64,000 nucleotides of DNA from Octopus vulgaris (taxonomy: Eukaryota), in the NCBI GenBank assembly GCA_951406725.2, contig OX597840.1, positions 21,452,001-21,516,000 of the forward strand, written 5' to 3'. The translations under genes were made by a program, and so were the position numbers. Within the stretch, counting starts at the first letter, position 1. Every line of letters begins with the position of its first letter. Below, in pieces: positions 37,006 through 37,800 of the stretch. A model generated the notes under the pieces. The model had not been told where the DNA came from, ran no database searches, and saw only the letters and a list, made by a program, of their open reading frames with translations.

Positions 37006-37755
37006 ATATATATATATATATGTGTGGTCCCTTCTGGTGAAATGACATCAAAACAATTGCAGCGTTATCCTTCATCTTTCAATAACTGAATGGTCTTCTG
37101 TTTCTCTTTCTAATTTAGACTAAATCCTGGCCAGCCACTGACTTGGTAGCAACGTTGAGAAGGTAAGTCCCTTGTTTTAATCATCACTTTTAAATCTTAA
37201 GAAGTTTTTGAAGATTTTTGTAGTCCCGGATATCATGATCATTTGTAGTGTATGAATTAAGGACTTGCATTCTCTCCCCCAAGGGCCCAACTTCAGCCAT
37301 ACTTTGTTCCGTGACCAGTTTGGAGTATTTTATAAGTTTCTGCTGTGTGTTTTCCCAGTTTAACACAAAAAAACTTCATTGCATAGAGTGAGCTTTCAAG
37401 TTGTCTTCATGTCCCAACTGCATTCTGCAAACAAGTCACCTGTGACAAGGCAGCAATGTTCAGTCAGGTGTGGCGAAAGTGCTGTTACAGTCGTTTCCTT
37501 CACTCTGCAATAAAATAAAGGTGGCAGGTCAGCTTATTGAATGTATCAGTGATGCTACACTAAAATTACAATAATTCTATGACAGTTGTAACTGCCTCTC
37601 CTACAAAAGTCTCAAAGCTTCTGGAATGCACCTTTTTGTGTGTGTGTGCGCGCGCACACACACACACAATCATGCATGTAGTAGTGTTGACAGTCATGCT
37701 TTACAATTTTTGACTGCTTCAAAAATTGTAAAGCATGACTGTCACCACTGCTACA

Positions 37756-37800
37756 TGAACCTGAAGATTGCAGAATTTAATGCATGAAAGTTCTAGTTCA
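37756..37800 (+). ncRNA. Minimal type-I hammerhead ribozyme motif with a complete core
   Basis: UGAAC-CUGAAGA-UUGCA-GAAUUUAA-UGCAU-GAA-AGUUCU-A-GUUCA; 5-bp helix I; CUA triplet. Confidence 0.75.

Follow-up and report, generated by a model that had tools for sequence, protein, structure and literature searches.

Is the long hairpin that runs into a minimal hammerhead motif at this Octopus vulgaris locus a ribozyme unit in its own right, or the trace of something larger? An earlier, sequence-only reading treated 37675-37800 as a ribozyme fused to a hairpin. We find instead that the feature extends from 37675 to 37945 of the window (the whole 64,000-nt stretch of DNA analyzed here), and sequence comparison indicates with high probability that it is a damaged, 270-bp head-to-head stump of a Penelope-type retroelement. 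Its parts are listed in Table 1, in an element numbering that takes the A of AGTCAAAAA as +1, the predicted transcription start.

Table 1. Features of the stump and its flanks (positions in the window; + numbers refer to the element).
Feature	Position	Strand	Evidence
(GT)n(GC)n(AC)n microsatellite, left flank	37638..37668	.	sequence
Inverted arm: second copy of the element end, +41..0	37675..37716	-	blastn against the real 4,271-bp unit, 97.6% over 42 nt
Loop: point where the two copies meet head to head, at the predicted transcription start	37714..37718	.	sequence, fold
Forward arm: 5′-truncated pLTR of Penelope-like element, +3..+234	37719..37945	+	blastn, 91.4% over 232 columns
Rare variant, +14 G to A, mirrored at 37702 on the left arm	37730	+	8 arms genome-wide
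Minimal type I hammerhead, +40..+84, older subfamily	37756..37800	+	sequence, descriptor, pair counts across families
Helix III segment AGTTCT; T37792 is A in the family	37789..37794	+	family counts, duplex energies
First 12 nt of the 31-nt optional tail (+223..+253)	37934..37945	+	sequence comparison
(TA)n-rich microsatellite flank, the usual target of the Penelope family	37948..38360	.	sequence

The hairpin at 37675-37757 was correctly described as having 39-bp arms, two mismatches and a 5-nt loop (83 nt, 39+5+39). One of the two mismatches is a G.T wobble (37682/37750) and the other a true mismatch (37687/37745), and the predicted fold has a z-score of -9.95, with none of 200 shuffles equally stable. 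The loop, though present, is a change in the window copy, being two bases longer than the one-base centre usual in palindromes of the family. What had been taken for a hairpin fused to the ribozyme as a module is the insertion junction of two copies, the remnant of a longer mirror image and very probably a by-product of insertion. Nor does the unit end at 37800, since the element runs on to 37945 and (TA)n follows only beyond that point. The remainder of the inverted left arm is absent, and its 42-nt length may reflect either short synthesis at insertion or later deletion. A programmed arm end near +42 was considered: a search pattern built to find such arms gave eight matches, about four of them true ends, which is too few to speak of a hot spot. 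In three centred palindromes (L138, L144 and L145, the last being the window copy) one arm stops at +41/+42, each time following the same CATG. The left microsatellite that adjoins the short arm is itself an inverted repeat.

The sequence is far from single-copy, and in this respect the earlier reading stood, as a 25-mer gave 1,600 exact matches and its control none. Three short family patterns, this one included, had 1,600, 1,522 and 1,758 exact matches and zero for each reversed control, which puts the family at about 1,600-1,760 arms in this genome. A DNA search of the same genome (2.8 Gb, 227 contigs) returned 1,158 candidates; among 40 that were scored, most were full mirror images of about 480 bp. 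Part of the matches recur every 4,271 bp in tandem, and this 4,271-bp unit is the parent element. It has two ORFs, an upstream one of 430 aa and one of 775 aa, both counted from stop to stop. The longer encodes a reverse transcriptase (RT; PF00078, E 6.8e-07 at L061) with a C-terminal GIY-YIG domain (PF01541, E 2.5e-05). The protein carries a CX4CxxC linker, a CCHH motif and two cysteines between GIY and YIG; because the linker occurs together with CCHH and the two cysteines, the Hydra and Naiad types are excluded by the published descriptions (Craig et al., 2021; PMC8557442). By the same descriptions, the sequence of the parent is that of an EN+ Penelope-like element (PLE) of the Neptune or Nematis type. 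The elements described there share the RT with C-terminal GIY-YIG, a CX2-5CxxC linker, the GxKF and DKG motifs and a hammerhead in the pLTR. The insertion traits of EN+ PLEs are likewise found in our family: partial tandems, an inverted 5′-truncated copy, a one-sided tail of 30-40 bp and a (TA)n target. Unlike those elements, the parent has a separate upstream ORF that overlaps the RT ORF by 94 nt, and the window retains a 270-bp stump alone.

The ORF overlap (L061:3358-3451, minus strand) is in the -1 frame and contains a run of seven T in slippery-heptamer register. A -1 ribosomal frameshift is possible at this site on the basis of its sequence; no strong structure was predicted downstream of the slippery run (-6.0 kcal/mol over 73 nt). 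On contig C1, tandem 4,271-bp units in five loci (L061, L063, L065, L066 and L067) are 99-100% identical. Both listed units of L061 have open ORFs, and L066 has one complete and one 5′-truncated pair. The family looks recently or currently active. Contigs from presumed RNA runs span the unit, and such contigs show no ends, strand or level.

We then consider where the arms of the family begin and end. All 30 arms sampled for their 3′ ends (the first 30 of 1,758 matching a 3′ pattern) stop at +222 (12 arms) or +253 (18 arms). Within the same sample the 5′ start falls at +1 (plus or minus 3) in seven arms, at the predicted ribozyme cut in none, upstream in 20 and elsewhere in three; about a quarter of arms start at +1. 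Genome-wide junction patterns, which demand two non-parental letters just upstream and so give lower bounds, and in which both arms of a palindrome are counted, found 398 arms starting at +1, 12 at the cut and six at a control position, +33. Only six of the 12 candidates at the cut were true starts, located at +76 to +80, with one at exactly +80. Palindromes centred at +1 numbered 81, and none was centred at the cut. With no pile-up of 5′ ends at the cut, we rejected insertions that start there. Insertions that end there were rejected too, as the eight candidate 3′ ends (four at a control site) all continue past it.

In the parent, +1 lies 30-32 nt after what we take to be a TATA-like box (TATTTATA, 32 nt), below three presumed CCAAT boxes and at a presumed CAGT initiator-like word. 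We infer that +1 is the transcription start and that arms starting there would be cDNAs run off uncut RNA. In 78 arms that lack an inverted partner, the start word ACAGTC directly abuts a TA-rich flank, and the +1 hot spot therefore needs no such partner. The letter before ACAGTC in these arms, examined for a cap-derived G, was G in 9, A in 2, C in 17 and T in 50. Literature searches, which covered mostly openly accessible papers, listed no report of a 5′-end pile-up of PLEs at the transcription start.

Of 32 centred palindromes, 29 carry the tail on one arm and not on the other; with the tail read on the right, the central letter is A in 18 and T in 11. The one-sided tail fits two primings at two internal sites, as seen in vitro for the Poseidon element PAc of Anolis (Frangieh et al., 2024; PMC11167929), in which two internal RT start sites define the tail, both strands are primed and the template is uncut RNA. 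In that study, none of the RNA reads described ended at the cut, and help from a protein was considered. PAc belongs to a different clade and has its sites inside the ORF, whereas ours lie upstream of ORF1, and the evidence here consists of genomic junctions alone. We propose that each of the two nicked strands of a (TA)n target primes reverse transcription at an internal site, at +222 and +253, and that a single uncut RNA probably often serves both. The resulting cDNAs would each run to the RNA 5′ end at +1, and their run-off ends would anneal through the near-palindromic first bases, with a central mismatch that leaves A or T. The two cDNAs would thus be joined head to head during one insertion into (TA)n, and in the window most of the left arm would then have been lost. 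Taken as a whole, we regard this explanation of the window stump as very probably correct.

Two other origins of the palindrome were weighed. In the first, it would be a non-autonomous MITE- or retrozyme-like unit copied whole, of which the window holds a broken copy. The 81 loci with one centre, the greater likeness of arms within loci than between them and the same layout in a sister family would all be expected of such a unit. Inversion points elsewhere in the unit vary widely, however; an inverted partner is lacking for many of the arms with a start at +1; both subfamilies contain centred palindromes, which follow the subfamily markers; and the central letter takes both states relative to the tail. 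Moreover, no retrozyme-style tandem hammerhead monomers were present in the loci examined, where it is the full 4,271-bp coding unit that forms tandems and the short copies are solo or head to head. The non-LTR retrozymes described recently (bioRxiv 10.64898/2026.07.22.740005) are similarly non-coding, with a type I hammerhead from PLE pLTRs, but are head-to-tail tandems of monomers, while the window holds a head-to-head single insertion. We therefore think it most improbable that the palindrome was copied as a unit.

In the second, the fixed centre would mark not the 5′ end of the RNA but a place where reverse transcription self-primes or switches template, on an antisense template for instance or at a hairpin spanning -2..+25. 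Antisense self-priming was the explanation given for the inverted-junction palindromes of Penelope in the rotifer Adineta (Arkhipova et al., 2013; PMC3846280), where the head-to-head junction palindrome, a 31-bp tail and a TATA box with initiator in the pLTR all resemble our family; the octopus element also has a 7-bp stem at the centre and near-palindromic first bases. Unlike in Adineta, where antisense self-priming was favoured, the junctions here pile up at the predicted sense start. The 78 arms joined directly to (TA)n share that start, for which no fold-back is needed, and the distance from the TATA-like box agrees with a start site. A fold-back at the 7-bp stem should, in addition, leave a 25-nt unduplicated loop rather than a one-base centre. 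These points make self-priming a very unlikely source of the centre, and run-off at the RNA 5′ end remains our preferred explanation.

If both primings used the same RNA, the two arms of a palindrome should share variants. Both arms of the window copy carry the +14 G to A change, which is present in only six other arms. Across 26 distinct palindromic loci (27 rows, one a duplicate), arms never mix subfamilies, and arm differences are smaller within loci than between them (1.4 vs. 2.3 and 0.7 vs. 1.5). Arms differ at U4 in three of the 26 palindromes and at +29 in three, and of the locus-private variants one was on both arms and 15 were on one arm. These comparisons suggest that the two arms of a palindrome likely come from one shared template; alternatively, arm-to-arm conversion could be the source of shared variants.

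What, then, of the hammerhead? The motif is as first described, with a 5-bp helix I (37756-60/37796-800), the core segments CUGAAGA (37761-67) and GAAA (37786-89), a 4-bp UGCA/UGCA helix II with U37768 opposite U37785 at its base (U10.1.U11.1), an AGUUCU helix III and a predicted cut after A37795. We wrote a relaxed minimal-hammerhead descriptor once the motif had been seen; it matched the window a single time, whereas 200 shuffles gave 0.01 matches on average, and none at all when helix I was required to have at least 5 bp. Rfam at its gathering threshold gave no match in the window, which is uninformative for minimal variants. The other nine CTGANGA...GAAA matches in the window, five of which were folded, all fail the descriptor. 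One CTGATGA...GAAA at 53520-53551 (plus strand) has a partial helix II and no helix I, and looks like a decayed hammerhead or a chance match.

In the family, helix III is a perfect palindrome, AGTACT/AGUACU (290 + 1,105 exact arms, and also a sister family, in which the search pattern fixed it). The consensus, which the earlier reading had proposed to check on this point, is thus perfectly palindromic, while the near-palindrome of the window is a change in this copy. The AGTTCT form occurs in eight arms genome-wide, and the predicted energy of the 6-mer self-duplex, a prediction for self-pairing, rises from -4.8 kcal/mol (AGUACU) to +0.4 kcal/mol (AGUUCU). A dimer-type minimal hammerhead is real as a motif, but this copy has lost its predicted dimer pairing. 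The predicted cost of folding into an open-core hammerhead is 4.7 kcal/mol for the window copy against 0.9-1.6 kcal/mol for family copies. The reading of the locus as a working hairpin-ribozyme unit, active as a dimer and perhaps a source of small RNAs, can draw on the canonical CUGAAGA and GAAA core, on helices I and II that form in the isolated 45-mer (predicted pair probabilities 0.90 and 0.98) and on U10.1-U11.1, which is a known active natural variant of hammerheads (PMC3088659). Fold prediction also indicates that the short left arm leaves most of the motif free, whereas full palindromes bury it (66 kcal/mol uphill). Against such a unit, the changed helix III bases are predicted to mis-pair with the core, and helix I has a predicted probability of 0.13 in read-through context. 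The blastn alignment to the parent shows that the promoter region is missing from the copy, and because it was not copied, RNA from the hairpin would need read-through transcription. No second family copy was found by blastn with the element unit within the 64-kb window, the nearest lying outside it. Even intact minimal PLE hammerheads are described as having no monomer activity and low dimer activity (Cervera and De la Pena, 2014; PMC4209133). On these predictions a functional unit at this locus appears extremely unlikely. The copy had also been ranked among the best candidates for residual activity, a ranking that does not hold: its rare A-to-T change removes the predicted dimer pairing, while 290 arms keep both the canonical core and the palindrome. 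We expect the window copy to be inactive, and cleavage by its hammerhead would surprise us greatly.

The exact motif with a CUGA core and the palindrome is found in 290 arms of an older subfamily, to which the window copy belongs, and with a CCGA core (U4C) in 1,105 arms of the youngest subfamily. Among mapped copies, identity to the intact tandem unit is mostly 98-100% for CCGA and mostly 88-95% for CUGA. Mere CpG decay of CCGA was considered as the origin of the CUGA core and rejected: the first 100 matches held CTG in 21 of 24 of the older type and CCG in 75 of 76 of the young type, and no CCA form. At the U4 position, contigs of other organisms had only T (organism D), both letters (C) or only C (B), and the sister family has CUGA as well, although its search pattern required it. 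With T as the sole letter in the contigs of organism D, we judge from these sequences that U4C is probably derived. This change considerably lowers activity in vitro and still allows viroid infectivity (PMC3088659). The expansion of the young subfamily need not be caused by it.

A pattern for the core alone gave 59 matches (35 for the control), and the 20 that we fetched included members of an older sister family and of a third family, more canonical in appearance. Copies of the sister family (L156, L158, L160, L174 and L175) are 70-80% identical at their ends and also form head-to-head palindromes, centred at the matching initiator-like word. Between the sister family and the window's, one pair in each helix changes on both sides, as expected for compensation. 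For covariation we aligned 12 of the 20 with three reference copies, dropping six that lacked helix I or belonged to other families and two of the window's subfamily. In this alignment 91% of cells are paired and the covariation score was reached in 0 of 500 shuffles, figures that reflect about two evolutionary events, a core fixed by the pattern and a test inflated by kinship. The third family (L161, L165 and further core-pattern matches) shares the AGTACT helix III and has a helix II region that is longer and purine-rich; L161 and L165 have a hammerhead-like core with an unclear helix I.

The metazoan PLE minimal hammerheads of Cervera and De la Pena (PMC4209133) share with ours the 5-bp helix I, palindromic 15.2-16.2 positions and loop 3, the location in pLTRs, opposite-strand pairs 100-700 bp apart and predicted dimer activity. 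Unlike those, our family lacks the G10.1-C11.1 pair, described there as highly conserved: it has U.U, and the sister family mostly C.U, so that a Y.U is kept. Its helix II is of 4 bp, the youngest subfamily has the U4C core, and the palindrome is broken in the window copy. Lunse et al. (2016) may already list variants of this type. The core CUGANGA...GAAA...UH with helices I and II is found in the window copy and the 290 older arms. Judging by predicted pairing, cleavage by the family hammerhead would be weak and would require dimerization through AGUACU.

The architecture of the stump is already known. Published accounts together cover pLTR hammerheads, opposite-strand pairs, low dimer activity, truncated copies in inverted orientation, tails, (TA)n targets and palindromes at junctions (PMC4209133; PMC8557442; PMC3846280; PMC6765202; PMC2377424; bioRxiv 10.64898/2026.07.22.740005). 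The interest lies in the junction and subfamily counts at the level of the family, and the window locus matters little, as just one decayed stump out of over a thousand. The role of hammerheads in PLEs has been called unclear (PMC8557442), and their cleavage was unnecessary in vitro (PMC11167929), a result with which the genomic junctions described here agree. The U4C lineage outnumbers the intact-core ancestor about four to one, and the two natural versions of one ribozyme (U4 and C4) allow a side-by-side comparison. We suggest tentatively, with somewhat less than even confidence, that the family is a natural genome-scale test, in which insertions record strong-stop-like run-off cDNAs and the amplifying lineage has fixed U4C. 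If so, retrotransposition in vivo would not require hammerhead cleavage, or would even be held back by it, and PLE start sites could be read from head-to-head stumps with no need of RNA data.

Elsewhere in the window, the output of a whole-window repeat finder was dominated by microsatellites. A short decayed frame at 37230-37410 (minus strand) resembles what we take to be the start of a mariner transposase; a 37-aa piece of it had no match in Pfam. A 449-codon open frame at 43143-44492 (plus strand), 5.2 kb downstream of the hammerhead and on the same strand, encodes a beta-ketoacyl synthase (PF00109, PF02801), presumably the mitochondrial enzyme, and positions 53-889 hold a tandem array with a 61-bp period.
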